Assembly: GCF_016026235.1 (NCBI RefSeq)
Contig: NZ_CP065613.1
DNA from: Escherichia coli
GTDB lineage: Bacteria; Pseudomonadota; Gammaproteobacteria; Enterobacterales; Enterobacteriaceae
Direction: 5' to 3' (one strand)
DNA: 64,000 nucleotides
In this document: in pieces, positions 1,471 through 55,200 of the stretch
How the letters are laid out: each line of letters starts with the position of its first letter
Position numbering within the stretch: the stretch's first letter is position 1
Position numbers and translations under genes: made by a program
Notes under the pieces: generated by a model
Told to the model about the DNA's origin: nothing
Database searches by the model: none
Seen by the model: only the letters and a program-made list of their open reading frames with translations

Positions 1471-1769
1471 TGAAAGTTAACGCCAGCGGCGGGATTGACG
1501 GCAGCGATGCGTTAATGGGGCCGAAGGTTCAGGCCAATGATATCAAGCAGGCCGCGGAGCAGTTTGAGGCGATTTTTTTACGCAACATGCTGAAAGAGAT
1601 GCGTAAAACCAACGAGCTGTTTGATTCGAAAGATAACCCGTTTAACAGCGATTCGGTGCGCATGATGCAGGGGTTTTATGACGATGAGCTGTGTAACACC
1701 CTGGCGCAGCAGCACGGGATCGGGATTGCGGCGATGATTGTGAAGCAGTTGTCGCCGAAGCATAAATGA
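1470..1769 (+). CDS. lfgJ: Short FlgJ-like rod-binding protein (N-terminal domain only, no muramidase domain)
   Basis: 99-aa ORF, ATGA overlap with lfgI stop; motif AAEQFEAIFLRNMLKEMRK resembles FlgJ N-terminal rod-binding domain. Confidence 0.75.
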   Translation: MKVNASGGIDGSDALMGPKVQANDIKQAAEQFEAIFLRNMLKEMRKTNELFDSKDNPFNSDSVRMMQGFYDDELCNTLAQQHGIGIAAMIVKQLSPKHK

Positions 1770-1785
1770 GGTTCCGGCGTTCGGC

Positions 1786-2062
1786 GCACGGTGCCTGATG
1801 CGACGCTGACGCGTCTTATCAGGCCTACGAGTCGCCCGTATGTAGGCCGGATAAGGCGTTCACGCCGCATCCGGCATTTGGTGCACGGTGCCTGATGCGA
1901 CGCTGACGCGTCTTATCAGGCCTACGAATCGCCCGTATGTAGGCCGGATAAGGCGTTCACGCCGCATCCGGCATTTGGTGCACGGTGCCTGATGCGACGC
2001 TGACGCGTCTTATCAGGCCTACGAGTCGCCCGTATGTAGGCCGGATAAGGCGTTCACGCCGC
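1786..2062. repeat. Tandem array of three ~97-bp REP/BIME-type palindromic units
   Basis: Unit beginning GTGCCTGATGCGACGCTGACGCGTCTTATCAGGCCTACGA…GTAGGCCGGATAAGGCGTTCACGCCGCATCCGGCA recurs with 97-bp period at 1791, 1888, 1985; copies differ by a single base. Confidence 0.9.
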
Positions 2063-2097
2063 TTTTAACCGGCACGATTTACCGGTAAGGATCCAAC

Positions 2098-3474
2098 ATG
2101 GACATGATTAACATCGGCTACAGCGGCGCATCAACCGCGCAGGTGGAGCTGAACGTCACGGCGCAAAACACCGCCAACGCCATGACCACGGGCTACACCC
2201 GCCAGGTGGCGGAGATCAGCACCATCGGCGCCAGCGGCGGTTCGCCGAACAGCGCCGGTAACGGCGTGCAGGTCGACAGCATTCGCCGCGTCTCTAACCA
2301 GTATCAGGTGAATCAGGTGTGGTATGCCGCCAGCGATTACGGCTATTACAGCACCCAGCAGGAGTATCTCACGCAACTGGAAGCGGTATTGAGCGACGAT
2401 AACAGCAGCCTGAGCGGCGGGTTCGATAACTTCTTCGCCGCCCTTAACGAAGCGACCACCAGCCCTGATGATTCCGCCCTGCGCGAGCAGGTGATCAGCG
2501 AAGCCGGGGCGCTGTCGTTGCGTATCGATAACACACTCGATTACGTCGACTCGCAAAGCACGGAAATCATCAGCCAGCAGCAGGCGATGGTGTCGCAAAT
2601 CAATACGCTCACCAGCGGCATCGCCAGCTATAACAAGCAAATCGCCCAGGCCGAAGCCAACGGTGATAACGCCTCTGCGCTGTACGACGCCCGCGATCAG
2701 ATGGTGGAAGAACTCAGCGGGATGATGGATGTGCAGGTTAATATCTACGACCAGGGCAACTACAACGTCACGCTGAAAAATGGTCAGCCGCTGGTGAGCG
2801 GGCAGCAAAGTTCGACCATCGCGCTGGAAACCAACGCCGATGGCACGCCGACCATGTCGCTGACCTTCGCTGGCACTACCTCGACGATGACCACCGACAC
2901 CGGCGGTTCATTAGGCGCACTGTTTGATTATCAAAACGACGTCCTGACGCCGCTGACCGACACCATCAACAGCATGGCGTCGCAGTTTGCCGATGCGGTC
3001 AACAACCAGCTGGCGCAGGGCTACGATCTCAATGGTAACTCCGGCGAGCCGCTGTTTATCTATGACGCCAGCAACGCCGATGGCCCGCTGACCGTTAACC
3101 CGGTTATCACCGCCGATGAGCTGGCGTTTTCCAGTTCACCGGACGAAAGCGGCAACAGCGACAACCTCCAGGCGCTGATCAACATCTCCACCGAACCGCT
3201 GGAGATCGACAATCTTGGCAGCGTGACGGTCGGGCAGGCGTGCTCGTCAATCATCAGCAATATCGGCATCTACAGTCAGCAAAACCAGACGGAAGTCGAT
3301 GCTGCGTCCAATGTCTATTCCGAAGCGCAAAACCAGCAGAGCAGCGTCAGCGGCGTTAGCATGGACGAAGAAGCGGTGAACCTGATCACCTATCAACAAA
3401 TTTATGAAGCCAATCTGAAAGTCATTTCCGCCGGGGCCGAGATTTTCGATTCGGTGCTGGAAATGTGCAGCTAA
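2098..3474 (+). CDS. lfgK: Flagellar hook-associated protein 1 (FlgK family)
   Basis: 458-aa ORF; FlgK-like N-terminus (MDMINIGYSGASTAQVELNVTAQN…) and C-terminus (…ITYQQIYEANLKVISAGAEIFDSVLEM); AAGGA SD upstream. Confidence 0.85.
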   Translation: MDMINIGYSGASTAQVELNVTAQNTANAMTTGYTRQVAEISTIGASGGSPNSAGNGVQVDSIRRVSNQYQVNQVWYAASDYGYYSTQQEYLTQLEAVLSDDNSSLSGGFDNFFAALNEATTSPDDSALREQVISEAGALSLRIDNTLDYVDSQSTEIISQQQAMVSQINTLTSGIASYNKQIAQAEANGDNASALYDARDQMVEELSGMMDVQVNIYDQGNYNVTLKNGQPLVSGQQSSTIALETNADGTPTMSLTFAGTTSTMTTDTGGSLGALFDYQNDVLTPLTDTINSMASQFADAVNNQLAQGYDLNGNSGEPLFIYDASNADGPLTVNPVITADELAFSSSPDESGNSDNLQALINISTEPLEIDNLGSVTVGQACSSIISNIGIYSQQNQTEVDAASNVYSEAQNQQSSVSGVSMDEEAVNLITYQQIYEANLKVISAGAEIFDSVLEMCS

Positions 3475-3488
3475 GCGGGAGCGCGAAA

Positions 3489-4418
3489 ATGCGAGTAACC
3501 ACCCAACAAACCTACGTCTCGATGACGCAAAGTTTTAATAATCTCTCCGGCGATCTGGCGCACGTGGTCGAGCAGATGGCAACCGGTAAGCAGATTTTGC
3601 AGCCGTCGGATGACCCGATCGCCGCCACGCGCATCACCCAGTTAAACCGCCAGCAGTCGGCGATTGAACAGTATCAGAGCAATATCGACTCCGCGTCGGC
3701 GGGGTTAAGCCAGCAGGAATCGATTCTCGATGGCGTCAACAACAGCCTGCTGGCGGTGCGCGACGACCTACTGGAAGCGGCGAACGGCACCAATACCGCC
3801 GATTCGCTCGCAAGCCTCGGCCAGGATATTGAGACGCTCACCGAATCGATGGTCGCGGCGCTGAACTATCAGGATGAAGACGGGCACTACGTGTTTGGCG
3901 GCACCATCAACGATCAGCCGCCGATTGTGGCAGTGGACGATGATGGCGATGGTGTCACCGACAGCTATAGCTACCAGGGCAACAGCGACCACCGCCAGAC
4001 CACCGTATCGAACGGCGTGGAAGTGGATACCAACGTGGCGGCGAGCGATTTCTTCGGCAGCAATTTAGACGTGCTCAACACGCTCAATTCGCTCTCGCAG
4101 GAGTTGCAAAACCCCAACGTTGACCCGGCAGATCCGCAGGTGCAGAGTGATATTCAGAACGCCGTTGATGTGGTGGACACCGCCTCGGACGACCTCAACG
4201 CCTCGATTGCGTCACTCGGCGAGACGCAGAACACCATGTCGATGTTGAGCGATGCGCAGACCGATATCTCTACCTCTAATGATGAGTTGATTGGTTCATT
4301 ACAGGATCTCGATTACGGCCCGGCGTCGATCACCTTTACCGGACTGGAAGTGGCAATGGAAGCTACCCTCAAGACTTACTCGAAGGTGAGTGAGTTGAAT
4401 TTGTTCAGCGTTCTCTAA
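3489..4418 (+). CDS. lfgL: Flagellar hook-associated protein 3 (FlgL family)
   Basis: ORF 3465-4418; GGGAG SD precedes internal ATG at 3489 (MRVTTQQTYVSMTQ…); flagellin-like N/C termini typical of FlgL. Confidence 0.8.
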   Translation: MRVTTQQTYVSMTQSFNNLSGDLAHVVEQMATGKQILQPSDDPIAATRITQLNRQQSAIEQYQSNIDSASAGLSQQESILDGVNNSLLAVRDDLLEAANGTNTADSLASLGQDIETLTESMVAALNYQDEDGHYVFGGTINDQPPIVAVDDDGDGVTDSYSYQGNSDHRQTTVSNGVEVDTNVAASDFFGSNLDVLNTLNSLSQELQNPNVDPADPQVQSDIQNAVDVVDTASDDLNASIASLGETQNTMSMLSDAQTDISTSNDELIGSLQDLDYGPASITFTGLEVAMEATLKTYSKVSELNLFSVL

Positions 4419-4434
4419 CTCTTTCAGGAACAGT

Positions 4435-5412
4435 ATGCAGGTCGGACTTACTTCTTCGTCACTCGCCACCGGCGGCGCGCACAGCGCTGCGGTATCGTCG
4501 TCAACCGTTGCGCCCACTCAGGCGGTGCGGCAAAAGCTCCCGGTGACGGCGAGTGAATATCCGGCCTCGCCGCTGATTACCACTCGCCCGCAGCGTTACA
4601 GCGTGCAGCTTAACGACCAGCTCACCACGTTGCAGCAGGCGGATCACTACCTCGGGCAACTGGAGCAGCAGTTGCTCGATTATCGTCATAGCCAGCGTAA
4701 GGGCGGGCAGGCGCAGAGTTCGGCGCTGATGCAGATGCTGGACAAACGCACCGCGCTTTCCGGCGGCGCGGTGGACCGCCAGTTACAGCCGGTGTTGCAG
4801 GGTGAAGCGCGGGTGACCTTTCACTCACCAGATCTGGCAAATCTGGTACACAATTCCACGCCGGGAACGCGTATGTTCAGCGTCTCTGACGGGCGACAGA
4901 CGCAGCTTTCGGCGGTAATGCTATCTGATGATGACAACGCCGGGCAGTATCAGACGCGGCTGACCAACGCCCTGCGCCGCGTGGGCGTGCAGCTACATCA
5001 GCAAGCGGATGGCATCAGTTTCTCCACCACTGAAAAACAGTGGCCCCATATCGAGCGCACCTTAAGCGTGCGTACCGATGGCGATAAATCAGCATTTATG
5101 CCGCTGAAAACCTTTGCTGAGCCGTCACAGGCGGACCGCTTAGCGCAAAGCCTGCAACAGGGCGGGGCGGGGATTTCTCAAATGCTGGAAAACATTAATC
5201 AGCAGCGCGCGCAGATGGCGGTGCAGCAGGAAAAAGCCCGCCAATTGATCGACGGCATGTCCCGCTTCCCGCAAACGGAAAATGCGGTGCAGGCATCGGA
5301 AAACCTCGGCGGCGTACTCGACAGCGCCAATCATAACTATCAGGTGTTATTGCAGGCGGTGAACGGCCAGGCGCGAATTTCCAGCCAGACGGTGAGGAAT
5401 TTATTGGGGTAG
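4435..5412 (+). CDS. lafW: Flag-2 locus protein LafW-like (Gln/Ala-rich, uncertain function)
   Basis: 325-aa ORF directly downstream of lfgL with AGGAACAG SD; assignment by position in laf gene order, not by recognisable motif. Confidence 0.55.
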   Translation: MQVGLTSSSLATGGAHSAAVSSSTVAPTQAVRQKLPVTASEYPASPLITTRPQRYSVQLNDQLTTLQQADHYLGQLEQQLLDYRHSQRKGGQAQSSALMQMLDKRTALSGGAVDRQLQPVLQGEARVTFHSPDLANLVHNSTPGTRMFSVSDGRQTQLSAVMLSDDDNAGQYQTRLTNALRRVGVQLHQQADGISFSTTEKQWPHIERTLSVRTDGDKSAFMPLKTFAEPSQADRLAQSLQQGGAGISQMLENINQQRAQMAVQQEKARQLIDGMSRFPQTENAVQASENLGGVLDSANHNYQVLLQAVNGQARISSQTVRNLLG

Positions 5413-5662
5413 GGTTATTGAAAATCAAACAAATGAGGCTGTCGCAAAAAATCATTTCAGTGCAGAATATGCTATAAATCTGCGGGTTAAAAAGGAATGA
5501 AATGGCCACTCTCAAGCAACTGATGGATAAGCAAAGCCCCGAAAGTCGTAGGCGAATAATTAAAAAAACAGAACGAATCCGGCAAACTATAATTAACAAA
5601 AAATTAGAGTTACCAATAACTACAACTATCAGTAATTCCGATTGATTTCATTCGGAATTTTC

Positions 5663-5702
5663 GTAGGCCGGATAAGACGCGTTTAGCGTCGCATCCGGCA
5701 TT
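5663..5702. repeat. REP palindromic unit
   Basis: GTAGGCCGGATAAGACGCGTTTAGCGTCGCATCCGGCA between convergent genes. Confidence 0.8.
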
Positions 5703-5714
5703 TATTAGCGCTCA

Positions 5715-6557
5715 TCAGCATTTCTGCACAGTATTTAACAACTTCTCTAAATTCTGGTACATCGCGCTATTAATATCACTATTCTGCCAGCCTTCCACAT
5801 TAAACGTTAATTGCCAGCTACCATTGCACTGGTTGCGCAGAACAATATCACTTTCCAGTCGGTTGCGAACATATTTATAATAGGTTGTCATTGTCATATT
5901 ATGCGCTGACAATAAATTATCGAGTTTGTCTTTCCCTGGTGCGAGGGTTTGTGAAAGTAACGGTGCGGAATTATTTTCTTTTCCAGAACTAAGATGAAAT
6001 ATTTTTATTCTTGGACTATTAACGGATTCTTTTACCAGCTGCGGGGCGTCAGGTGTATTTTTTAAGTGTGAATAACCCACGGTCGAGCCAATAAATATAA
6101 CAGCCGCGGTCAAGGCTAACCCCATCAGTCCTTTATGTTTTTTTCTAACAGGCACAGGCGGTGTTGTCGAAGATATCTCTTCTGGCGCTGTTTCTTTTAT
6201 CTGGTCGGTAATAATCAGCGCTTCCGCAGGCGATGACTCCGGCAAAGACACATACTCTTTATTGCATAAGTAACCTTTCTTCGGAATTGTTTTAATAATG
6301 TTCTGTTGTTTGCCATCATCGTCGATAGCAACGCGCAACGCATGAATCGCCGTCGGCAGGCTGTTACCGCCGACAATGCGGTTCTTCCATACTTCGGCAC
6401 ATAAATAAGATCGCGATAAAACTACATCGGCATTTTTTGCTAATGTTTCCAGCAAAATAAAATGGTATTCGCCGAGACGACGTGTTTCACCCGTTTCGCA
6501 ATGTATTAAGGCATTAAGCGACGGGTCCATCCGCCAGTTGTTGATAATAATACTCAT
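5715..6557 (-). CDS. lafZ: ToxR/CadC-like transmembrane transcriptional regulator (N-terminal winged-helix OmpR-type DNA-binding domain, one TM segment, periplasmic C-domain)
   Basis: Translation has OmpR/PhoB-type wHTH region (…LETLAKNADVVLSRSYLCAEVWKNRIVGGNSLPTAIHALRVAI…IKTIPKKGYLC) followed by hydrophobic segment GLMGLALTAAVIFIGSTVGY; ORF extends to 6614 but ATG at 6557 (MSIIINN) is the more likely start. Confidence 0.7.
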   Translation of the reverse strand: MSIIINNWRMDPSLNALIHCETGETRRLGEYHFILLETLAKNADVVLSRSYLCAEVWKNRIVGGNSLPTAIHALRVAIDDDGKQQNIIKTIPKKGYLCNKEYVSLPESSPAEALIITDQIKETAPEEISSTTPPVPVRKKHKGLMGLALTAAVIFIGSTVGYSHLKNTPDAPQLVKESVNSPRIKIFHLSSGKENNSAPLLSQTLAPGKDKLDNLLSAHNMTMTTYYKYVRNRLESDIVLRNQCNGSWQLTFNVEGWQNSDINSAMYQNLEKLLNTVQKC

Positions 6558-6970
6558 AGTTGAGTTTACCTTAGCAAGGGATAAATGTTCCTGATAGTGC
6601 TTTGCATAAAGCACAGTCTTATACGTCCCTGAGAAGATGATTTTTCTGCGTGATAATTAATATTTTATGGTAATAGGATTATTCTTAATCACTATATGGC
6701 GTGGAAATGTAACGAAATGACAGGACAGGTACAATAGCCAAATGTGTACTATTTGCAACGCAATGTAAATTTTGGCATCAGTACATTGAGAAGAAAACGC
6801 ATTAATTGATGGTAATCTTAACTATATCAAGCGTTTGATAAAGACATATTTTGATACCTGGCCATGTGGCAGATATTGCTAATAATCTTTTTATCTGAAT
6901 TTAAACTCTGCTTTTTTTTAGCTAAAAGTGGCATCAGATAATACGTAGCGAAAATTTTTTCATAGCGATT

Positions 6971-6997
6971 TTAAGTTTGCTCCTGAGGTGTCGTTTT
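6971..6997 (+). promoter_or_regulatory. Candidate sigma-28 (FliA/LafS-type) promoter upstream of lafA
   Basis: TTAAGTTT (7/8 to TAAAGTTT) -N11- GTCGTTTT (weak match to GCCGATAA), ~45 bp upstream of lafA ATG. Confidence 0.3.
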
Positions 6998-7042
6998 TAC
7001 AGGGTATCGAAACGAAAACGATTAATCCCAAGGAGCAGTATC

Positions 7043-7957
7043 ATGTTATCTATTAACACCAATAACGCCTCAATGGCCGCCGTTAATGCAATCAGCAAAA
7101 GCAGCTCTTCTCTGTCTACATCTATGGAACGCCTGGCGACAGGTAACCGGATTAACTCTTCTGCCGATGACGCCGCAGGCAAACAAATTGCTAACCGTCT
7201 GACTGCACAGTCCAGCGGTATGGGCGTGGCGCTGAGCAACATCAATGATGCCACCGCGATGCTGCAAACCGCTGACAGCATGTTCGACGAAATGTCTGAC
7301 GTGCTGGGCCGTATGAAAGACCTGTCAACTCAGGCAGCGAACGGCACCTACAGCGACGACGATCTGCAGGCGATGCAGGACGAATACGACGAACTGGGTC
7401 AGCAGATGTCTGACATGCTGCAAAATACCACTTACGGCGGTACCAACCTGTTCGGTGTTTCCGGTACCAGCAACACCGGTACTGACGGTCTGTTCCAGAG
7501 CGCGGTAACTTTCCAGGTGGGCGCGGAATCTTCCGACACCATGACCGTGAATATTTCAAGCCAGCTGAATACCCTGGTGACGGATCTTTCTGCTATCAGC
7601 AACTCCTTCAGTGCGGATCAGGCAGACACCACGGGTACTGCAGGCGTGTCTGGCGGTACTGAGCTGACTGCGTCTGGCTCGGCTAACCAGATGATCACCA
7701 GCATTTCTACCGCGATGGATGACGTGTCGCAGATCCAGTCCAAACTGGGTGCGTCTATTAACCGTCTGAACGACACTGCCAACAACCTGACCAGCATGCA
7801 GGACAACACCGAAGTCGCTATCGGTAACATCATGGATACCGACTACGCGACGGAAGCGTCCAACATGACCAAACAGCAGGTGCTGATGCAAACCGGCATC
7901 ACCATGCTGAAACAGTCCAACAGCATGTCCAGCATGGTTTCCAGCCTGCTGCAGTAA
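7043..7957 (+). CDS. lafA: Lateral flagellin
   Basis: 305-aa product with flagellin N-terminus (MLSINTNNASMAAVNAISKSSSSLSTSMERLATGNRINSSADDAAG) and C-terminus (…TKQQVLMQTGITMLKQSNSMSSMVSSLLQ); AAGGAG SD at 7030-7035. Confidence 0.9.
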   Translation: MLSINTNNASMAAVNAISKSSSSLSTSMERLATGNRINSSADDAAGKQIANRLTAQSSGMGVALSNINDATAMLQTADSMFDEMSDVLGRMKDLSTQAANGTYSDDDLQAMQDEYDELGQQMSDMLQNTTYGGTNLFGVSGTSNTGTDGLFQSAVTFQVGAESSDTMTVNISSQLNTLVTDLSAISNSFSADQADTTGTAGVSGGTELTASGSANQMITSISTAMDDVSQIQSKLGASINRLNDTANNLTSMQDNTEVAIGNIMDTDYATEASNMTKQQVLMQTGITMLKQSNSMSSMVSSLLQ

Positions 7958-7960
7958 TGG

Positions 7961-7999
7961 CGGACTTGCCGGATGCGGCGTAAACGCCTTATTCGGCCT
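7961..7999. repeat. REP palindromic unit downstream of lafA
   Basis: GCCGGATGCGGCGTAAACGCCTTATTCGGCCTAC. Confidence 0.75.
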
Positions 8000-8003
8000 A
8001 CGA

Positions 8004-8037
8004 ACAACACCGCCTGCGGGCGGTGTTGTGCTTTCTG
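8004..8037 (+). terminator. Rho-independent terminator after lafA
   Basis: Stem ACAACACCGCC / GGCGGTGTTGT with 4-nt loop, followed by GCTTTCT. Confidence 0.75.
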
Positions 8038-8109
8038 CGGCAGGCTTTTTTCCGCCAGACCGGAAACGCCATTTCCGCCAGTTTTTCAATCTATTGATTA
8101 TTCACATAA

Positions 8110-8137
8110 AAAATATTGGCACGCCTTTTGCCAATAA
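8110..8137 (+). promoter_or_regulatory. Candidate sigma-28-type promoter upstream of lafB
   Basis: GCCAATAA at 8130-8137 (7/8 to -10 consensus GCCGATAA), 27 bp upstream of lafB ATG; -35 match weak. Confidence 0.3.
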
Positions 8138-8163
8138 CCTGACATCGTTACCCGGAGTCATCA

Positions 8164-9480
8164 ATGATCAACCCAAGAACCATTGCGCAAGAAATCGCGT
8201 ATGCGGATGTTGCCACTCAGGCGGCAAACTTGCAGGAAAAGCAAACGGAGCTGGATGCCGAAAGCAGCGGCCTGGACTCGCTCAGCTCAGCGTTGAGCGA
8301 TTTCCAGAGCGCCGTCGACGCGCTGAACAGCGATACCGACGGCCCGGTGACTTTTGCCGCCACCAGCAATAATGACTCGGCGACTGTTTCCGCTAACTCG
8401 CAGGCGCAGGCGGGAAGCTACTCATTTTTCGTTGAGCAACTGGCGCAGGGGCAGCAAACCACGTTCAGTATGGGCGACGACGCCTTTTCCGCCACCGGCA
8501 CTTTTGAACTGACGATGGGCGACAGCACCATGGATATCGATCTGTCTGCGGCAGATCAGAACGGTGACGGCGACGGTTATATCGACGCCAGCGAGCTGGT
8601 GAGCGCGATTAACGACTCCGACGATAATCCGGGCGTTTCAGCGGCACTGGTAAAAACCGACGGCACCACCACGATAATGTTCACCTCGGATAGCACCGGG
8701 GCGCAGAGCGCGTTTTCGGTGAGCGTAACGGGGCATGACGCCAGCAACGATAGCACCAGCGCGCCCGTTGCCACGGATGTTTCCTCAGCCCAGGACGCGA
8801 TTATTCATCTCGGCAGCGCCACGGGGCCAGCCATCACCAACAGCAGCAACACTTTTGATGATGTGATCCCCGGCGTCACCATGACCTTTAGCGAAGTCAG
8901 CGACTCTGACAGCGATCTCACCACCTTTAACATTAGCGAAGATTCCAGCGCCACCGAAGACAAAGTGCAGACCTTTGTCGATGCCTATAACACGCTGATT
9001 GATACCGTCGATTCACTGACCACCAGCGGCAGCGACAGTACCAGCGCCGGGGTTTTTGCCGGAGATGCGGGACTCAGCTCACTGGCAAACCAGCTCGATG
9101 ACATCGCCCACGCCAGCTACAACGGCGAGTCGATTGTCGATTACGGCATTACGCTCGACTCCAATGGCCATTTGCAGATCGACTCTGATCAGTTCAACGA
9201 CGCGATGAAAAGTGACCCTGACGGTCTGACCTCTATTTTCGTTGGCGACAACAGCATGGTGGCGCAGATGGACGACCTGATTAACACCTACACGGACTCC
9301 AGCAACGGCATCATCACCCTGCGCCAGCAGAACATTGACGATCAGATGAGCAAAATTCAGGACGAAGGCGATCAGCTTACCGATACCTATAACGCCAACT
9401 ACGACCGTTATCTCGAGGAGTACACCAACACGCTGGTCGAGGTGTACACCATGAAAGCCAGCATGGCGGCATTCGCGTAA
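8164..9480 (+). CDS. lafB: Flagellar filament cap protein (FliD family)
   Basis: 438-aa ORF following flagellin; Ser/Thr/Asp-rich central region, FliD-like termini. Confidence 0.75.
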   Translation: MINPRTIAQEIAYADVATQAANLQEKQTELDAESSGLDSLSSALSDFQSAVDALNSDTDGPVTFAATSNNDSATVSANSQAQAGSYSFFVEQLAQGQQTTFSMGDDAFSATGTFELTMGDSTMDIDLSAADQNGDGDGYIDASELVSAINDSDDNPGVSAALVKTDGTTTIMFTSDSTGAQSAFSVSVTGHDASNDSTSAPVATDVSSAQDAIIHLGSATGPAITNSSNTFDDVIPGVTMTFSEVSDSDSDLTTFNISEDSSATEDKVQTFVDAYNTLIDTVDSLTTSGSDSTSAGVFAGDAGLSSLANQLDDIAHASYNGESIVDYGITLDSNGHLQIDSDQFNDAMKSDPDGLTSIFVGDNSMVAQMDDLINTYTDSSNGIITLRQQNIDDQMSKIQDEGDQLTDTYNANYDRYLEEYTNTLVEVYTMKASMAAFA

Positions 9481-9502
9481 CTCAGAAGGAATATCCCTAA
9501 AG

Positions 9503-9895
9503 ATGTACCAAGTACAGGACGGCTATTCACAATATAAAGAGATCGATCTCGCGGCGCGTACTGCGGCGGCATCGCCTCTGGAACTGGTGCTGGTGCTGTT
9601 TTCTGGCCTGATGGACGAGCTGGAACGCGCCAAAAGCCATATTGAAGGGCGGCGTTTCGAGAAGAAAGCCCAGAGCATCAATAAATGCATCGACATTCTC
9701 AATGCGCTCACCAGTTCGCTGGAGTTTGAAACTGGCGGCGAGCTGGTGGTCAACCTTTCGCGACTCTATGACCACTGCGTTTACCGATTGTATGAGGCCA
9801 GCGGCGAACTGTCGGCAGAGAAAATCGATGAAGTGATGCTGATCTTAAGCAACCTGCGCGAAGGCTGGGAAGGGCTTTCGGGCAAGCTGGGTTAA
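9503..9895 (+). CDS. lafC: Flagellin export chaperone (FliS family)
   Basis: 130-aa ORF; FliS-like helical protein in expected position. Confidence 0.75.
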   Translation: MYQVQDGYSQYKEIDLAARTAAASPLELVLVLFSGLMDELERAKSHIEGRRFEKKAQSINKCIDILNALTSSLEFETGGELVVNLSRLYDHCVYRLYEASGELSAEKIDEVMLILSNLREGWEGLSGKLG

Positions 9896-9899
9896 GACG

Positions 9900-24803: not shown

Positions 24804-25214
24804 TTAAGCCAATTGCTGCCGCCATTCCTTGACGTGGTCAATCAGGGCGCGGAGCTTTGGTGCAATATTGCGACGCTGTGGGAAATACAGATAGAAGCCC
24901 GGAAATTGTGGAAGAAAGTCATCAAGCAGAGATACAAGCCTACCGCTTTCAATATATGGCCTGAAAGTTTCCTGAGTGGCAATTGTTATTCCTCCGCCGG
25001 CAAGAGCCAGCCTCAACATCAGACGCAGATCATTAGTCGTAATCTGTGGTTCAATCGCAAGGTCGAAAGTTCTCCCGTTTTCTTCAAATGGCCAGCGATA
25101 AGGCGCAACCTCCGGGGACTGACGCCAGCCGATACACTTATGGGTATTTCCCCCGGAGGTGAGAAAGCGCTTTCCACGCCCGGCCGCAAGGATCAGGACG
25201 ACGGGGGCAGGCAT
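24804..25214 (-). pseudogene. yagP: LysR-family regulator, C-terminal fragment only (no HTH domain)
   Basis: 136-aa ORF ending with typical LysR C-terminus (…FPGFYLYFPQRRNIAPKLRALIDHVKEWRQQLA); DNA-binding N-terminal half absent. Confidence 0.7.
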
Positions 25215-26150
25215 GAATCCTCCTCCTGATGGAGACGTACAGAGGCGACTTCTGCCAGCACGGAGAGTGCCAGAGTATGCGCATCCCGGGCTTTGGGGAA
25301 TATCCCGACGGGTGCCCGAATTTGCGCTGTCTCCTCCCTGGACCATCCCAGCTCGTGGAGCTTTTGCAGACGTAACGTGTGGGTTCGATAGCTGCCCAAT
25401 GCGCCGAGATAAAAGGGTTTTGCTTCTCGCGCGGCCTGCAACACTGGCAGCTCCCGGTTGAGATCATGGCACAGCAAAATGACCGCCGTATCGGTATCGA
25501 TCTGAGCGCTGGCTGAGGCCGGAAAAAGATCGAAGATATGGCTGTCATAGCCTGTGGCTGCTGCAAGACTCGCGGTTGCCTGCGCCTCAAGAGAACGTCC
25601 GTAAATCATCAGCCTGACGCATGGCCTGAACCCCACCTCAAAGCCATTGAGATTCCAGCCACGTTCGGGTTTGCGTGGGCAGGCACACCAACGATTGTGC
25701 TTGCGGATCGTAGCGCAGCCCCGCCGGTTTTCTCTGTTCCAGGCGGTTCAGCACGGCGAGCAGAGGCTGTGCCGAGCGTAGTTTATGGAGCGTCAGCGTG
25801 ATCCCACCGCCGCAGGGCAGAACGATGTCAAACCACGGCGAACCTTCGCCATAGCGAATTTCGCGATCGCAGCCTGAGCCCATCATCTCCAGCGCTTCAA
25901 AAGCGGCAGCGGCCTCCACGCAGCCGCCAGAGACAAAACCGCAGTAACGACCATCTTCGCGCACCACCATCTGCGCCCCGAGCGGGCGCGCCGCGCCGCC
26001 GCGTATCTCCACCAGCGTCACCAGCACCGCTCCTTTACCGGACATTAGCGCCTCTACGGCGAAGCGCAGAATGGTCCGGTGGTCATCGGTGAGAAACGCC
26101 TGCTCTGGCTTATGCCAGTGTTCGTCTTTATCAAAAAGCGGGTATGACAT
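25193..26150 (-). pseudogene. paoD: XdhC-family molybdenum-cofactor insertion chaperone, split by a frameshift
   Basis: Two abutting minus-strand ORFs in different frames (26150-25638 N-domain; 25636-25193 C-domain starting RLMIYGRSLEAQ…) that together span an XdhC-like protein. Confidence 0.7.
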
Positions 26151-43599: not shown

Positions 43600-44524
43600 A
43601 TGATGAAAATAGAGCCTTCAATTTTGCCTTCTCTTGCCTGGTTTGCGCTGATTGTTCGTGCCGGCAGTTTTTCCAGAGCCGCTTCTGAAATGGGTATTAC
43701 GCGGGCCGCATTGTCCCAGAATTTAAAATCTCTTGAGGAACGTCTTAACACCAAGCTGATATACCGTACGACCCGCAATATGTCGCTTACTGAGGAAGGA
43801 CTGCGTCTGTATGAAGTGCTGGTGTCGGCTTTGGGGCAAATTGATGATGCTTTGAAAGATGTTGGTGATACCCAACTTGAACCTACAGGCCTGTTGAGAA
43901 TAAATTCCTCCCGTGTTGCAGCACGGATGCTTGTTGAGCCTCATATTGGCGAGTTTCTTACTCGTTACCCCAAAACAAAGATAGAACTCATTATGGATGA
44001 CGGTTTATCTAACATTATTGCGGACGGCTGTGATGTGGGCATACGTCTTGAGCAAGGACTGGATGAGCATATGACTGCCGTTCCTGTTTCTCCGCTTATT
44101 AAACTGGTTACTGTGGCATCGCCAGATTATTTAAAAGAACACGGTATTCCTGAAACGCCTCAGGAACTGAGTAACCATAATTGCCTTCGGTTGCGGCATA
44201 AAAGTAGCGGTGCACTCTCTGCATGGGAGTTTTCTAATGTTGCGGGCGGGAATGAAGAGTTCGAAATAGAGGTTTCAGGTAAGTATATTTCTAATGATGA
44301 CGAAAGCATGATACGAATGGCGCTGAATGGAACGGGTATCATTCAACATCTGGATTTTGCAATCGCTGAACATATCAATGCGGCAAGTTACAGCCGATTC
44401 TTGAGGATTGGGCTGTTTCATTTCCTGGGTTTTATATTTATGTTTCATCACGGGTGAGAATGCCCTCTAAAGTTCGTGCTTTTATTGATTTTATGGTGGA
44501 GAAAAGAGTAAAACTCGAAAATTG
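43600..44524 (+). pseudogene. LysR-family transcriptional regulator with a frameshift near the C-terminus
   Basis: HTH start MMKIEPSILPSLAWFALIVRAGSFSRAASEMGIT; the track ORF ends at 44457 in non-LysR sequence, while the canonical LysR C-terminus (GKLQPILEDWAVSFPGFYIYVSS…KVRAFIDFMVEKR) is encoded in another frame from ~44382 to 44524. Confidence 0.7.
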
Positions 44525-44674
44525 ATGATATGTGTCAGAATATCGGTAAGAAGAATGGCGCAATCGTGAGAATACGTTTATTCATAATAAATATCCTGAA
44601 AGTTTAGAATTATTTTCGATACAGCCAGATTATCATTGTTACTAATAATGTGGTTAAAATAATAGCATCTATGA

Positions 44675-47611
<2,937 letters not shown>

Positions 47612-48083: not shown

Positions 48084-51000
48084 ATGTCACGTTATAAAAC
48101 AGGTCATAAACAACCACGATTTCGTTATTCAGTTCTGGCCCGCTGCGTGGCGTGGGCAAATATCTCTGTTCAGGTTCTTTTTCCACTCGCTGTCACCTTT
48201 ACCCCAGTAATGGCGGCACGTGCGCAGCATGCGGTTCAGCCACGGTTGAGCATGGGAAATACCATGGTAACTGCTGATAATAATGTGGAGAAAAATGTCG
48301 CGTCGTTTGCCGCAAATGCCGGGACATTTTTAAGCAGTCAGCCAGATAGCGATGCGACACGTAATTTTATTACCGGAATGGCCACCGCTAAAGCTAACCA
48401 GGAAATACAGGAGTGGCTCGGGAAATATGGTACAGCGCGCGTCAAACTGAATGTCGATAAAGATTTCTCGCTGAAGGATTCTTCGCTGGAAATGCTTTAT
48501 CCGATTTATGATACGCCGACAAATATGTTGTTCACTCAGGGGGCAATACATCGTACAGACGATCGTACTCAGTCAAATATTGGTTTTGGCTGGCGTCATT
48601 TTTCAGGAAATGACTGGATGGCGGGGGTGAACACCTTTATCGACCATGATTTATCCCGTAGTCATACCCGCATTGGTGTTGGTGCGGAATACTGGCGCGA
48701 TTATCTGAAACTGAGCGCCAATGGTTATATTCGGGCTTCTGGCTGGAAAAAATCGCCGGATATTGAGGATTATCAGGAACGCCCGGCGAATGGTTGGGAT
48801 ATCCGCGCAGAGGGCTATTTACCTGCCTGGCCGCAGCTTGGCGCAAGCCTGATGTATGAACAGTATTATGGCGATGAAGTCGGGCTGTTTGGTAAAGATA
48901 AGCGCCAGAAAGACCCGCATGCGATTTCTGCCGAGGTGACCTATACGCCAGTGCCTCTTCTGACACTGAGCGCTGGGCATAAGCAGGGCAAGAGCGGTGA
49001 GAATGACACTCGCTTTGGCCTGGAAGTTAACTACCGAATTGGCGAACCTTTGGCGAAACAACTCGATACGGATAGCATTCGCGAGCGTCGGGTACTGGCA
49101 GGCAGCCGCTATGACCTGGTTGAGCGTAATAACAACATCGTTCTTGAGTACCGCAAATCTGAAGTGATCCGTATTGCTCTGCCTGAGCGTATTGAAGGTA
49201 AGGGCGGTCAGACACTTTCCCTCGGGCTTGTGGTCAGCAAAGCAACTCACGGACTGAAAAATGTGCAGTGGGAAGCGCCGTCATTACTGGCTGAAGGTGG
49301 CAAAATTACCGGTCAGGGTAGTCAGTGGCAAGTAACGCTCCCGGCTTATCGTCCAGGCAAAGACAATTATTATGCGATTTCTGCGGTTGCCTACGATAAC
49401 AAAGGCAATACCTCAAAACGCGTGCAGACAGAGGTGGTCATTACCGGAGCTGGTATGAGCGCCGATCGCACGGCGTTAACGCTTGACGGTCAGAGCCGTA
49501 TTCAAATGCTTGCTAACGGTAATGAGCAAAAACCGCTGGTGCTGTCTCTGCGCGACGCCGAGGGCCAGCCAGTCACGGGCATGAAAGATCAGATCAAGAC
49601 TGAACTAACTTTCAAACCGGCTGGAAATATTGTGACTCGTTCCCTGAAGGCCACTAAATCACAGGCAAAGCCAACACTGGGTGAGTTCACCGAAACTGAA
49701 GCAGGGGTGTATCAGTCTGTCTTTACTACCGGAACGCAGTCAGGTGAGGCAACGATTACTGTTAGCGTTGATGGCATGAGCAAAACCGTCACTGCAGAAC
49801 TGCGGGCCACGATGATGGATGTGGCAAACTCCACCCTGAGCGCTAACGAGCCGTCAGGTGACGTGGTTGCTGATGGTCAGCAAGCCTATACGTTGACGTT
49901 GACTGCGGTGGACTCCGAGGGTAATCCGGTGACGGGAGAAGCCAGCCGCTTGCGATTTGTTCCGCAAGACACTAATGGTGTAACCGTTGGTGCCATTTCG
50001 GAAATAAAACCAGGCGTTTACAGCGCCACGGTTTCTTCGACCCGTGCCGGAAACGTTGTTGTGCGTGCTTTCAGCGAGCAGTATCAGCTGGGCACATTAC
50101 AACAAACGCTGAAGTTTGTTGCCGGGCCGCTTGATGCAGCACATTCGTCCATCACCCTGAATCCTGATAAACCGGTGGTTGGGGGTACAGTTACGGCAAT
50201 CTGGACGGTAAAAGATGCCTATGACAACCCTGTGACCAGCCTCACGCCGGAAGCGCCGTCATTAGCGGGTGCCGCTGCTGAAGGTTCTACGGCATCGGGC
50301 TGGACAAATAATGGTGATGGGACGTGGACTGCGCAGATTACTCTCGGCTCTACGGCGGGTGAATTAGAAGTTATGCCGAAGCTAAATGGACAGAATGCGG
50401 CAGCAAATGCGGCAAAAGTAACCGTGGTGGCTGATGCGTTATCTTCAAACCAGTCGAAAGTCTCTGTCGCAGAAGACCACGTAAAAGCCGGCGAAAGCAC
50501 AACCGTGACGCTGGTGGCGAAAGATGCGCATGGCAACGCTATCAGTGGTCTTGCGTTGTCGGCAAGTTTGACGGGGACCGCCTCTGAAGGGGCGACCGTT
50601 TCCAGTTGGACCGAAAAAGGTGACGGTTCCTATGTTGCTACGTTGACTACAGGCGGAAAGACGGGCGAGCTTCGCGTCATGCCGCTCTTCAACGGCCAGC
50701 CAGCAGCCACCGAAGCCGCGCAGTTGACGGTCATCGCTGGGGAGATGTCATCAGCGAACTCTACGCTTGTTGCGGACAATAAGGCTCCGACCGTCAAAAC
50801 GACGACGGAACTCACCTTCACCGTGAAGGATGCGTACGGGAACCCGGTCACCGGGCTGAAGCCAGATGCACCAGTGTTTAGCGGTGCCGCCAGCACGGGG
50901 AGTGAGCGTCCTTCAGCAGGAAACTGGACAGAGAAAGGTAATGGGGTCTACGTGGCGACCTTAACGCTGGGATCTGCCGCGGGTCAGTTGTCTGTGATGC

Positions 51001-52340
51001 CGCGAGTGAACGGCCAAAATGCCGTTGCTCAGCCACTGGTGCTGAACGTTGCAGGTGACGCATCTAAGGCTGAGATTCGTGATATGACAGTGAAGGTTAA
51101 TAACCAACTGGCTAATGGACAGTCTGCTAACCAGATAACCCTGACCGTCGTGGACAGCTATGGTAATCCGTTGCAGGGGCAAGAAGTTACGCTGACTCTG
51201 CCGAAAGGTGTGACCAGCAAGACGGGGAATACGGTAACAACCGATGCGGCAGGTAAAGCCGACATTGAGCTGATGTCAACGGTTGCGGGAGAACACAATA
51301 TTTCCGCTTCGGTGAATGGTGCTCAGAAGACGGTCACGGTGAAATTCAAGGCGGATTTCAGTACCGGTCAGGCGACCCTGGAGGTTGATGGCAGCACGCC
51401 AAAAGTGGCAAACGACAATGATGCCTTTACGCTGACGGCAACGGTTAAGGATCAATACGGCAACCTTCTGCCTGGCGCTGTGGTCGTCTTTAATCTGCCT
51501 CGGGGCGTCAAACCGCTTGCAGACGGTAATATCATGGTGAACGCCGACAAGGAGGGTAAAGCGGAACTGAAAGTGGTCTCCGTGACTGCCGGAACGTATG
51601 AGATCACGGCGTCGGCAGGAAATGACCAGCCTTCAAATGCGCAGTCTGTAACGTTTGTGGCCGATAAGACTACGGCGACCATCTCCAGTATTGAGGTGAT
51701 TGGCAACCGTGCAGTGGCGGATGGCAAAACCAAACAGACGTATAAAGTTACGGTGACTGATGCCAATAACAACCTGTTGAAGGATAGCGACGTGACGCTG
51801 ACTGCCAGCTCGGAAAATTTAGTTCTGGATCCTAAAGGGACGGCGAAAACTAATGAGCAAGGACAGGCTGTTTTCACCGGCTCTACCACTATCGCAGCGA
51901 CATATACACTCACGGCGAAAGTGGAACAGGCCAACGGTCAGGTATCGACGAAAACTGCTGAATCTAAATTCGTCGCGGATGATAAAAACGCGGTGCTCGC
52001 CGCATCTCCAGAACGTGTAGATTCTCTGGTGGCGGACGGGAAGACTACTGCAACAATGACGGTTACCCTGATGGCGGGAGTCAATCCCGTAGGAGGAAGT
52101 ATGTGGGTCGACATTGAGGCTCCGGAAGGAGTGACGGAGAAGGATTATCAATTCCTGCCGTCGAAGGCTGACCATTTCTCAGGTGGGAAAATCACGCGTA
52201 CATTTAGTACCAGCAAGCCAGGTGTCTATACGTTCACATTCAACGTACTGACGTATGGCGGGTACGAAATGGCGCCTGTGAAGGTGACAATTAACGCCGT
52301 TGCTGCAGAGACTGAAAATGGCGAGGAGGAGATGCCATAA
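48084..52340 (+). CDS. eaeH: Intimin/invasin-family inverse autotransporter adhesin (EaeH/FdeC-type), full length
   Basis: 1418-aa ORF: N-terminal beta-barrel region followed by many Big-type repeats including three ~100-aa near-repeats (…GELEVMPKLNGQNAAANAAKVTVVA / …GELRVMPLFNGQPAATEAAQLTVIA / …GQLSVMPRVNGQNAVAQPLVLNVA). Confidence 0.85.
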   Translation: MSRYKTGHKQPRFRYSVLARCVAWANISVQVLFPLAVTFTPVMAARAQHAVQPRLSMGNTMVTADNNVEKNVASFAANAGTFLSSQPDSDATRNFITGMATAKANQEIQEWLGKYGTARVKLNVDKDFSLKDSSLEMLYPIYDTPTNMLFTQGAIHRTDDRTQSNIGFGWRHFSGNDWMAGVNTFIDHDLSRSHTRIGVGAEYWRDYLKLSANGYIRASGWKKSPDIEDYQERPANGWDIRAEGYLPAWPQLGASLMYEQYYGDEVGLFGKDKRQKDPHAISAEVTYTPVPLLTLSAGHKQGKSGENDTRFGLEVNYRIGEPLAKQLDTDSIRERRVLAGSRYDLVERNNNIVLEYRKSEVIRIALPERIEGKGGQTLSLGLVVSKATHGLKNVQWEAPSLLAEGGKITGQGSQWQVTLPAYRPGKDNYYAISAVAYDNKGNTSKRVQTEVVITGAGMSADRTALTLDGQSRIQMLANGNEQKPLVLSLRDAEGQPVTGMKDQIKTELTFKPAGNIVTRSLKATKSQAKPTLGEFTETEAGVYQSVFTTGTQSGEATITVSVDGMSKTVTAELRATMMDVANSTLSANEPSGDVVADGQQAYTLTLTAVDSEGNPVTGEASRLRFVPQDTNGVTVGAISEIKPGVYSATVSSTRAGNVVVRAFSEQYQLGTLQQTLKFVAGPLDAAHSSITLNPDKPVVGGTVTAIWTVKDAYDNPVTSLTPEAPSLAGAAAEGSTASGWTNNGDGTWTAQITLGSTAGELEVMPKLNGQNAAANAAKVTVVADALSSNQSKVSVAEDHVKAGESTTVTLVAKDAHGNAISGLALSASLTGTASEGATVSSWTEKGDGSYVATLTTGGKTGELRVMPLFNGQPAATEAAQLTVIAGEMSSANSTLVADNKAPTVKTTTELTFTVKDAYGNPVTGLKPDAPVFSGAASTGSERPSAGNWTEKGNGVYVATLTLGSAAGQLSVMPRVNGQNAVAQPLVLNVAGDASKAEIRDMTVKVNNQLANGQSANQITLTVVDSYGNPLQGQEVTLTLPKGVTSKTGNTVTTDAAGKADIELMSTVAGEHNISASVNGAQKTVTVKFKADFSTGQATLEVDGSTPKVANDNDAFTLTATVKDQYGNLLPGAVVVFNLPRGVKPLADGNIMVNADKEGKAELKVVSVTAGTYEITASAGNDQPSNAQSVTFVADKTTATISSIEVIGNRAVADGKTKQTYKVTVTDANNNLLKDSDVTLTASSENLVLDPKGTAKTNEQGQAVFTGSTTIAATYTLTAKVEQANGQVSTKTAESKFVADDKNAVLAASPERVDSLVADGKTTATMTVTLMAGVNPVGGSMWVDIEAPEGVTEKDYQFLPSKADHFSGGKITRTFSTSKPGVYTFTFNVLTYGGYEMAPVKVTINAVAAETENGEEEMP

Positions 52341-52479: not shown

Positions 52480-53364
52480 CTAAACCGGACGAACGGGAAT
52501 AAAAATTTCGCAAACAACATCATTGCCATCCTTTTCTACGAAATCTTCATTGTAATAAAAGCGCTCAATATCGCTGCCGTTCACTCTGGCTAACCCCCTG
52601 GCAGGCAACTCTATCAGATAGATGTTACGCACCCAGTCAGGATAATTTTCCCAGTTTCCTTCATAACGGAAAGAGGCATAAAGTCCTCGGGTCGTTGTCC
52701 ACTCTTTTGGCATGTCAGCATATTCACATACCGTACCAGCAAAAGTTTCAACCGTGAGCAAATCGACCGATTTTGTTGACGGTTCAAACGTGGAGACGAA
52801 ATAGATATCCGTCTTATAATTCTTCATACATCTGGCTAAATGATGACGTCGTAGTTTGACTTCTTCATCCGGTGATTTATTCGACACCTCAATGTCATAT
52901 TTAAATGAGTTGCCAAAAATAGGTGTCTCAGGAAAGTTGACTAATCGACACTCCGTCTTTTGCTGTTGACGTATTAAAAAAGAAGGGAAGATATTTGCGA
53001 GATCCCAATAATCACGGTGGCGGTATTCACGGGGAGAGCAGCCGAATAACTTTTTAAATTCGCGGCTGAATGACTGCTGTGAATCAAAATGCAAAGAGAG
53101 TGCAATATCAAGCATAGATTTCGCGGTGAGCCGGACAAGAATGGCGGCACGGCAAAGCCTTCGTTTGCGAATGTATTCTCCCAAAGGCACATGCATGAAA
53201 TTTCGGAACAGAAGCTGGATGTTGCGTCTGCTGTAGCCAGATTTCTGTGCGATATCTTCGATTGAAATAGGGTGCTCAAGATTGCACTCAATCCACTCCA
53301 GGAGCTGCTGTAGAATCTTCTGCCTGATCATCACATTCTCCATTAATTCTTCGTCATATCGCAC
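52480..53364 (-). CDS. ykgA: AraC-family transcriptional regulator with C-terminal effector-binding domain
   Basis: 294-aa ORF with AraC HTH region near N-terminus (…IAQKSGYSRRNIQLLFRNF…). Confidence 0.75.
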   Translation of the reverse strand: MRYDEELMENVMIRQKILQQLLEWIECNLEHPISIEDIAQKSGYSRRNIQLLFRNFMHVPLGEYIRKRRLCRAAILVRLTAKSMLDIALSLHFDSQQSFSREFKKLFGCSPREYRHRDYWDLANIFPSFLIRQQQKTECRLVNFPETPIFGNSFKYDIEVSNKSPDEEVKLRRHHLARCMKNYKTDIYFVSTFEPSTKSVDLLTVETFAGTVCEYADMPKEWTTTRGLYASFRYEGNWENYPDWVRNIYLIELPARGLARVNGSDIERFYYNEDFVEKDGNDVVCEIFIPVRPV

Positions 53365-53562
53365 ATTTTCGTTATGCCCTGGGCCCTAGTGTATCAAAAA
53401 CAGCAAGTCCGAAGGCAAAAGCACTGGTAGCGTCTGCTTCATTGCCCAAAAAATAGAGAGGTTTCAGTCCTACATTATTAATGAATTTTTTGCATAAGTG
53501 ATATCAAAATCCACATACTAATTTGAGGTTACGTTTTAACGTAGACTCATTGTTCATGCCTA

Positions 53563-54447
53563 ATGGAGGGACTGACAGTGGAATTTTCCGTATTAAGTAA
53601 CAATCTGAAAATGCCGATGATGGGATTTGGTGTTTTTCAGGTTACCGATAAAAACGTGTGCAAACAGTCAGTGTTGAACGCTATCCGCACGGGGTATCGA
53701 CTCATCGACACTGCAGCGGTATACGGTAATGAAGATGCTGTCGGTGAAGCCGTTCGTGAAGCCATATCCGAAGGTTTATGTACCCGAGAAGAGTTATTTA
53801 TAACGTCTAAATTGTGGGTGCAGGATATGTTGAATCAGGATACGGCAGCAGCAGGTATTGAAGCATCATTAAAAAAATCGGGACTAGAATACTTCGACCT
53901 CTATTTATTGCATCAGGCTATGCGCGATTATTTCAGTGCGTGGCGTGCACTCGAAGATGCCTATGAAGAGGGCAAATTAAAAGCGATTGGGGTTTCCAAT
54001 TTCTATCCTCATGTTCTGGCGAACTTTTGTGAAACGGTAAGAGTTAAACCGATGGTCAACTAGGTCGAGTTGCATCCCTATTTTGCCCAACCAGAGGCGC
54101 TGGCAACCATGAAGTATTATAACGTGCAGCCTGAAGCATGGGCTCCGTTAGGTGGTGGACGACATAAACCCTTTGAAAATAATCTGCTTCAGAGTATTGC
54201 AGATGCCCATCAAAAATCGATTTTTCAAGTCATTCTGCGTTGGAATATTCAACGGGGAGTGGTCGTTATTCCGAAATCGACACATCAACAGCGTATCGAA
54301 GAAAATTTCGCTATCTGGGATTTCTCACTGACAGAGAAAGAAATGGCACAAATTAGTTCGCTTGATTTGGGTTATGTTGGGGAGTCGGTAAAACATTTTA
54401 ATCCTGAATTTGTTCGTGGTTGTCTTGCTGTAAAAATACATGATTGA
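53563..54447 (+). pseudogene. Aldo-keto reductase interrupted by an in-frame amber codon
   Basis: Two same-frame ORFs (53563-54063, 54070-54447) separated only by TAG at 54061-54063; translation reads …PMVN*VELHPYF… where AKRs have NQVE(x)HP. Confidence 0.75.
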
Positions 54448-54606
54448 TATTAATCATGTATTTTTCCTGAGACGACAAGAATCTTTTAACAGGGGAGTGA
54501 TATTGATCTTCACTCTGTCATATCTCCGGTAATATGGCGTCAGGCTTCATCATCAGAAAGGGGGCCTGACGCCTGAAAAAGTGAACAACAGACAGTGTTC
54601 GGATTA

Positions 54607-55200
54607 TCAATATTCAGTTTTTAACGTTGAACTGGATTCATTACTGCGTTGTTTAAGAATTTCCCGCGCCGAATCTGCCATTATCATGACAGCACCTGCC
54701 AGCATCAGAGTATCTTTCAATACCAAGCGACCAGCACCGGATAAATAAGGGAAACCATGATGAGCGTCACCCAATGCGGGTACCCATGCCTCCGGGGTGG
54801 TGATTAAAAATGAGAGTGTTACCAACGGTGTGGTAAATGCCATCAGCCCTCCCAATAAACCTAACCAGCGATTGACAGGATTAGCCAAAACCAGCAGAGC
54901 AATAATCACCTCCACGACGCCAAGACCGTTGGAAAAACCATAGGTATTATTGGCCGATTGCCATGCCCTTGCTTCTGGTTTGTATTCGCCTTCGTGAGTC
55001 AGATACTGTTTATAGTCTTCCGGGTGTTCATAAAAGAACGACATTAGTGGACTGTTTGCGACGAATGGTGTAATGCTGTCTGCCTCGTAAGGGACAAACT
55101 TTAATAACCCAATCCACATAAAAACAATTGCAATACTCAGACGAATCAATGTCAGGCCAATTTTATCTCCCCGACTTAACAGGTGCAGGTATTTTTCCAT
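54607..55200 (-). CDS. rclC: DoxX-like inner membrane protein of the reactive-chlorine response
   Basis: Multi-TM ORF adjacent to rclB/rclA; ORF extends to 55209. Confidence 0.8.
   Translation of the reverse strand: MEKYLHLLSRGDKIGLTLIRLSIAIVFMWIGLLKFVPYEADSITPFVANSPLMSFFYEHPEDYKQYLTHEGEYKPEARAWQSANNTYGFSNGLGVVEVIIALLVLANPVNRWLGLLGGLMAFTTPLVTLSFLITTPEAWVPALGDAHHGFPYLSGAGRLVLKDTLMLAGAVMIMADSAREILKQRSNESSSTLKTEY

Follow-up and report, generated by a model that had tools for sequence, protein, structure and literature searches.

The window analysed here, a stretch of 64,000 nucleotides from Escherichia coli, carries an aldo-keto reductase (AKR) gene whose reading frame is interrupted by one TAG codon. 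This raises the questions of whether the codon is a true mutation or a sequencing error, what the gene has lost by it, and how the base change arose and was kept.

The AKR gene and its locus

The features of the locus are as follows.

52480 to 53331, minus strand: AraC-type regulator with a GyrI-like domain, intact and divergent, ortholog of the K-12 pseudogene ykgA
53565 to 53569, plus strand: GGAGG Shine-Dalgarno sequence, 8 nt 5' of the GTG at 53578, read directly from the sequence
53578 to 54447, plus strand: AKR gene, full-length ortholog of ykgQ, 289 codons with codon 162 a stop
53578 to 54063, plus strand: residual N-terminal ORF of 161 aa with Asp44, Tyr49, Lys78 and His112, deposited as STL99453.1
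54061 to 54063, plus strand: amber TAG replacing Gln162 (CAG) in the NQVE cofactor-binding motif
54109 to 54447, plus strand: residual C-terminal ORF of 112 aa from an internal ATG, with the IPKS and R..EEN motifs, deposited as STL99450.1

Translation from 53563 (or 53578) runs in one frame to the TGA at 54445-54447, and the TAG is its sole internal stop; the window reads GTC AAC TAG GTC GAG around 54061-54063. Translation and alignment agree with the original prediction of an in-frame TAG in an otherwise intact AKR, at the Gln of NQVE. That prediction had begun the gene at 53563. The frame is indeed open from there, but the GTG at 53578 is the more likely start, since it is the PGAP start in relatives and is well spaced from the GGAGG sequence, with which the ATG at 53563 overlaps.

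When codon 162 was read as Gln, the translation matched the Pfam family Aldo_ket_red (PF00248) over residues 25-262 with 145.7 bits (cut-off 24). Among solved AKRs it matched 1vp5 best (E=1.7e-84), then 4mhb, 3b3d (YtbE), 3d3f (YvgN) and 1mzr (DkgA), with full-length homology to the 2,5-diketo-D-gluconate reductase and YvgN/YtbE AKRs at E=1e-58 to 1e-84. The solved AKRs read vNQiE where this gene has TAG. The 2,5-diketo-D-gluconate reductase group shares with it the catalytic residues, NQ(V/I)E and IPKS, the difference being that the window allele is truncated. From its sequence, the AKR is predicted to be an accessory NADPH-dependent enzyme of the group around the 2,5-diketogluconate reductases and YvgN/YtbE.

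D44, Y49, K78 and H112 are invariant columns when the product is aligned with the other two AKRs of the window, and they correspond to the established AKR catalytic tetrad Asp-Tyr-Lys-His. In AKRs, the Gln at the place of Gln162 in NQVE makes a hydrogen bond to the nicotinamide carboxamide, as Gln183 does in human aldose reductase. The neighbouring AKRs had been said to read NQVE at the homologous place; this holds for the gene at 46667-47518 on the minus strand (VNQVE, 44% identical) but not for that at 45651-46640 on the minus strand (LQSEY, 27% identical).

The AKR gene is flanked by the divergent AraC/GyrI regulator gene on one side and by the convergent rclC-rclB-rclA operon on the other. 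Its position between ykgA and rclC, together with 99.2% identity of nt 742-870 to the K-12-type ykgQ remnant, identifies it as the ykgQ ortholog. From the gene arrangement alone, the AraC/GyrI protein (52480-53331) is the probable regulator of the AKR. A promoter and terminator scan of 53300-54650 gave nothing above shuffled expectation.

The amber codon is genuine and one step from an intact allele

FDAARGOS_943 (L001), which among complete genomes is closest to the window (99.9% identity in the ~12 kb that align), has CAG at codon 162, as do the DNA sequences L006, L010-12 and L024-26. The exactly repaired 289-aa protein (P0016) is present in other E. coli isolates. These comparisons bear out the single CAG-to-TAG change proposed earlier, and the sequences place the TAG allele a single mutational step from a living intact allele. 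Between the window and FDAARGOS_943, the AKR gene has no synonymous and two non-synonymous differences in addition to the stop.

The original prediction had left room for a sequencing error, in which the isolate would truly carry CAG. The absence of the TAG 61-mer from all complete E. coli genomes holding the AKR stretch (0/2,948) could be read in this way, as could the two further single-base lesions in the window; the best complete RefSeq E. coli match to 24 kb of the window has 98.7% identity. Error is nevertheless excluded by assemblies of the same clone from other sequencing runs that are fully or nearly identical to the window and carry TAG. The Logan assembly of SRR13627086 is 100% identical over 20.4 kb, that of ERR926423 is 100% identical over 11.6 kb, and that of SRR17652795 has a single difference in 16 kb (99.99% identity). 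The exact 161-aa truncated product was found in 15 contigs and 26 index blocks, such contig counts of nonsense alleles reflecting clonal sampling and not mutation rate. Both AKR halves, STL99453.1 and STL99450.1, were also deposited on a 4.56-Mb E. coli contig. The other two lesions recur in the same manner, the LysR frameshift in the same 100%-identical contigs and the truncated PaoD product in 26 index blocks including ERR926423, and the paoD insertion lies outside any homopolymer run. The probability that the TAG is an error is practically nil; it would require that every one of these runs go back to one faulty reference-guided assembly. The comparison of the codon in other strains that had been proposed separates CAG in the relatives from TAG in independent assemblies of the clone.

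Two further residues of the gene were observed in these comparisons. The AKR of FDAARGOS_943 is open and carries Pro232Ser in the conserved IPKS motif (ISKS; aligned to window 54271), so that this enzyme may be impaired although it is annotated as intact. Codon 216 of the window gene (54224) encodes Phe (KSIFQVI), where the other full-length alleles examined, except P0016, have Ser; since the intact allele P0016 has Phe216 too, this lineage-specific change is older than the amber codon.

Consequence of the truncation

Because of the stop at codon 162, the protein loses 128 of its 289 residues, the C-terminal 44%, including IPKS and R..EEN, and no single polypeptide of this allele holds a complete (alpha/beta)8 barrel with NQxE, IPKS and R..EN. 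The window AKR is a family member by descent, but its allele cannot encode a complete one. The 161-aa fragment retains the catalytic Asp, Tyr, Lys and His; an active enzyme would not be expected from it, because it is without the C-terminal 44% and the C-terminal cofactor motifs. Two more AKRs are encoded 6-8 kb from the gene within the window, and E. coli has several further AKRs elsewhere. Redundancy of the AKR with these enzymes is plausible.

The mutated base lies in the only Dcm site of the gene

One more feature is needed here.

54060 to 54064, plus strand: CTAGG, mutated Dcm site (ancestral CCAGG), changed at 54061, the internal cytosine that Dcm methylates

In the repaired AKR gene, the CCAGG at codon 162 is the only CCWGG. 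All CAG alleles have CCAGG at this place and all TAG alleles have CTAGG. The link to Dcm was absent from the original prediction, and the methylatable C of CCAGG as the mutated base is the new point. Of 5,426 complete E. coli genomes, 5,358 contain the dcm-vsr region at >=80% coverage, with a query located in NC_000913.3.

Published rates give this position its weight. At the lacI amber hot spots, GC-to-AT changes fall on the second C of CCAGG and are ~10-fold over-represented; the hot spots are absent in E. coli B, which is without cytosine methylation (PMC12606429). Cherry 2018, as summarised in PMC9520237, reported for natural genomes of E. coli and Salmonella that T replaces the inner C of CCWGG ~8-fold faster than it replaces other cytosines. 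If this excess applies here, ~7/8 of the mutations at such a site would be owed to methylation. Vsr very-short-patch repair normally corrects the T:G mismatch that arises from 5-methylcytosine deamination (PMC2715241).

We consider it probable that the window AKR is a young pseudogene produced by a heritable C-to-T change at 54061, most likely through deamination of 5-methylcytosine, which has persisted because the gene is dispensable. Deamination is favoured as the origin because the mutated base is the internal C of the only Dcm site of the gene. We infer both methylation of the site in the window strain and deamination as the cause. A 5-methylcytosine at 54061 would have deaminated to thymine and escaped Vsr repair, and the resulting change of the Gln162 CAG into an amber codon would end translation after 161 of the 289 residues. 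The TAG allele would then have persisted in the clone, the enzyme being dispensable and probably redundant, and would be too recent for removal by selection.

Recurrence of nonsense alleles in the AKR gene

Truncation after residue 161 was also found on other N-terminal haplotypes (P0034, P0046, P0047 and P0048). When these truncations were checked in the DNA, all were CTAGG, on at least five haplotype backgrounds, a count that, like the other background counts given here, is not phylogeny-aware. Five TAG backgrounds differ mutually at ~20-105 positions in 2.7 kb. For three of them, a complete genome differs at that base alone over 2,737-2,738 bp; the closest CAG sisters of the window clade and of TAG background L009 have 2 and 4 other differences, respectively. 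Independent mutations are the simplest reading of TAG on several backgrounds, as suggested by these sequences, with import through a recombination tract shorter than ~220 bp as a formal alternative.

Most other haplotypes contain a second in-frame CCAGG (CAC CAG G, codons 112/113). The window reads CAT CAG G at 53911-53917 and is without this second Dcm site because its codon 112 is CAT. CAG-to-TAG alleles of Q113 (P0050), which lie in the second site, were found at the DNA level on at least three backgrounds.

The control was formed by other C-to-T nonsense changes. Nine of ten such truncations on one N-terminal haplotype are present in the collection. At two non-Dcm sites the DNA confirmed real stops, Q217 CAA-to-TAA on at least three backgrounds and R195 CGA-to-TGA on at least four. 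Recurrence was therefore rejected as proof of a hot spot, as non-Dcm nonsense sites recur across backgrounds too. Recurrence at the Dcm site is unspecific because the sampling of E. coli is near saturation for AKR null alleles, and the case for a hot-spot origin is built on precisely where the change lies and on the published rates, and not on the recurrence count. In more general terms, E. coli sequencing is now near saturation in the sense that almost every C-to-T nonsense allele of a dispensable gene can be found, and recurrence alone is poor evidence of a hot spot or of selection.

Gene loss and selection across E. coli

Among 5,063 complete E. coli genomes with the locus, the AKR region was present at >=80% in 2,927, leaving ~2,100 (~40%) without a full-length gene. 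Those sampled from the remainder match the region at ~44% and bear a cut-down AKR annotation. Alleles disrupted by a poly-A frameshift or by an IS are present in other E. coli. Between deep haplotypes, intact alleles have pairwise dN/dS of 0.06-0.17, and the intact AKR is under purifying selection. The AKR is dispensable and often lost in E. coli. Weak or relaxed selection on a dispensable gene, which had been suggested earlier, fits these data.

An A7 run at 53871-53877 within the gene is intact in the window. Loss of one A from this run in other E. coli gives a 102-aa frameshifted product (P0033) found in 269 index blocks; slippage at this hot spot has inactivated the same AKR gene in another lineage.

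Alternative explanations

The closest competitor to a methylation-driven origin is an ordinary C-to-T mutation, unrelated to methylation, that fell within CCAGG by chance and was kept by drift in the clone. The repeated hits at Q217, R195 and other non-Dcm sites show that no hot spot is needed for a nonsense allele of this gene. Against this, the AKR gene allows 129 single-base nonsense changes, 28 of them transitions, and only one of them falls at the Dcm cytosine, yet this is the one observed; the ~8-fold excess reported for Dcm cytosines (Cherry 2018, as summarised in PMC9520237) would make ~7/8 of such mutations owed to methylation; and dcm-vsr is nearly universal in E. coli. We regard a methylation-independent change as unlikely. 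A different matter is whether inactivation was itself advantageous in some niches, with selection behind the many null alleles. The number of independent routes to loss (deletion in ~40%, the poly-A frameshift in 269 blocks, IS insertion and several nonsense alleles) would agree with such an advantage. However, intact alleles are under strong purifying selection, the TAG alleles are young, with only 0-4 further differences between them and their intact sisters, and TAG is missing from all complete genomes, a pattern that short-lived alleles with a neutral or slightly deleterious effect would give, which makes adaptive loss a distinctly weaker candidate than chance mutation.

Two further possibilities would leave the enzyme available to the cell. 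One is suppression or read-through of the amber codon, for instance by a Gln-inserting suppressor tRNA, so that the full-length enzyme is made. With a suppressor of the supE type, Gln would be inserted and the protein would be wild type, and the downstream frame is perfectly intact; however, the allele is young enough to account for the intact frame, as it is identical to P0016 save this base, and tRNA-Thr is the only tRNA annotated in the homologous regions examined. To our knowledge, amber suppressors are rare in natural isolates, and we hold suppression to be extremely improbable. The other is that CAG/TAG in the Dcm site is a contingency-like polymorphism, a two-way methylation-driven switch in which deamination (CCAGG to CTAGG) would turn the AKR off and Vsr repair (CTAGG to CCAGG) would turn it back on. 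Vsr repair is reported to promote CTAGG-to-CCAGG changes (discussion in PMC2715241). If true, the switch would also act in other haplotypes, at their second in-frame CCAGG (codon 113). We give this proposal very little credence, slightly more than suppression.

Relation to known systems

Among the closest known cases is K-12 MG1655, in which the locus carries the annotated pseudogenes ykgA (b0300) and ykgQ (b4631), the latter a 129-bp remnant. The locus is the same in both (fdeC/eaeH - ykgA - AKR - rclCBA - rclR), and both AKR copies are dead. In K-12, however, only the 129-bp 3' part of ykgQ remains and ykgA and eaeH are broken too (IS3A), whereas the window has a complete 870-bp gene with one base changed and intact orthologs of ykgA and fdeC. 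The inactivation of the window AKR is independent of, and much younger than, the loss of ykgQ in K-12.

The fdeC/eaeH gene (1,418 aa; 48084-52340) and the ykgA-type regulator gene (52480-53331) are intact in the window, and both are pseudogenes in K-12 MG1655 through IS3A insertion.

The chemistry likewise has a classic precedent. Amber hot spots of lacI at Dcm sites were described by Coulondre, Miller, Farabaugh and Gilbert in 1978. The AKR change resembles them in that CCAGG became CTAGG at the second C and a CAG Gln codon became amber. It differs in that the dependence on methylation was demonstrated experimentally for lacI, whereas methylation and the rate excess are inferred for the AKR, and in that the population control for the AKR did not single out the Dcm site. 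A second likeness is with the methylation-induced hypermutation in natural E. coli and Salmonella populations reported by Cherry 2018 (J Bacteriol; as cited in PMC9520237), where C-to-T changes at the inner C of CCWGG recur across natural isolates; that work is genome-wide and statistical, whereas the AKR is a single-gene instance of loss of function.

The window AKR is a real, recent and lineage-wide amber pseudogene of an ordinary kind; events of this type are in the textbooks, and in K-12 the gene already counts as a pseudogene. It cleanly illustrates, in a natural isolate, the chemistry of the classic Dcm amber hot spots. For annotation, the entries STL99453.1 and STL99450.1, each named 'putative aldo/keto reductase', are the halves of one recent pseudogene.

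The other lesions and the state of the window

Two other genes of the window carry lesions.

25193 to 26150, minus strand: paoD, molybdenum cofactor insertion chaperone of the PaoABC aldehyde oxidoreductase, with +T at 25661
43600 to 44525, plus strand: first LysR-family regulator gene, one G of a GGG run missing at ~44381

The original prediction of three point lesions was right in that all three are real, but those in paoD and the LysR gene are single-base frameshifts and not substitutions. Compared with intact references, the inserted T in paoD shifts the frame at codon 163 and gives a 170-aa product. The missing G in the LysR gene, at codon 261, frameshifts the C-terminal 48 residues, and the contigs from other runs that share this lesion with 100% identity are L002 and L004. 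In FDAARGOS_943, paoD is intact and the LysR gene is wholly deleted beside an IS1. Over ~35 kb, the window and FDAARGOS_943 differ by ~20 substitutions and two single-base indels. The three lesions belong to the load of mutations, not yet purged, that a clone of recent divergence usually carries in its accessory genes.

Because FDAARGOS_943 is rich in IS1, IS600 and ISEc60, Shigella-style genome decay of the window was suspected. It was rejected, as the 58 window genes checked were all full length and free of insertions, and 55 of them had no frameshift or premature stop. The fdeC gene of FDAARGOS_943 is broken by IS600 and IS1. The genes of the Flag-2 lateral flagellar cluster that were checked (370-14282, flgI to lafU, including lafA, fliD, motA and a FliA-type sigma factor) are undisrupted in the window, and the cluster of the comparison reference strain contains frameshifted or partial genes as annotated.
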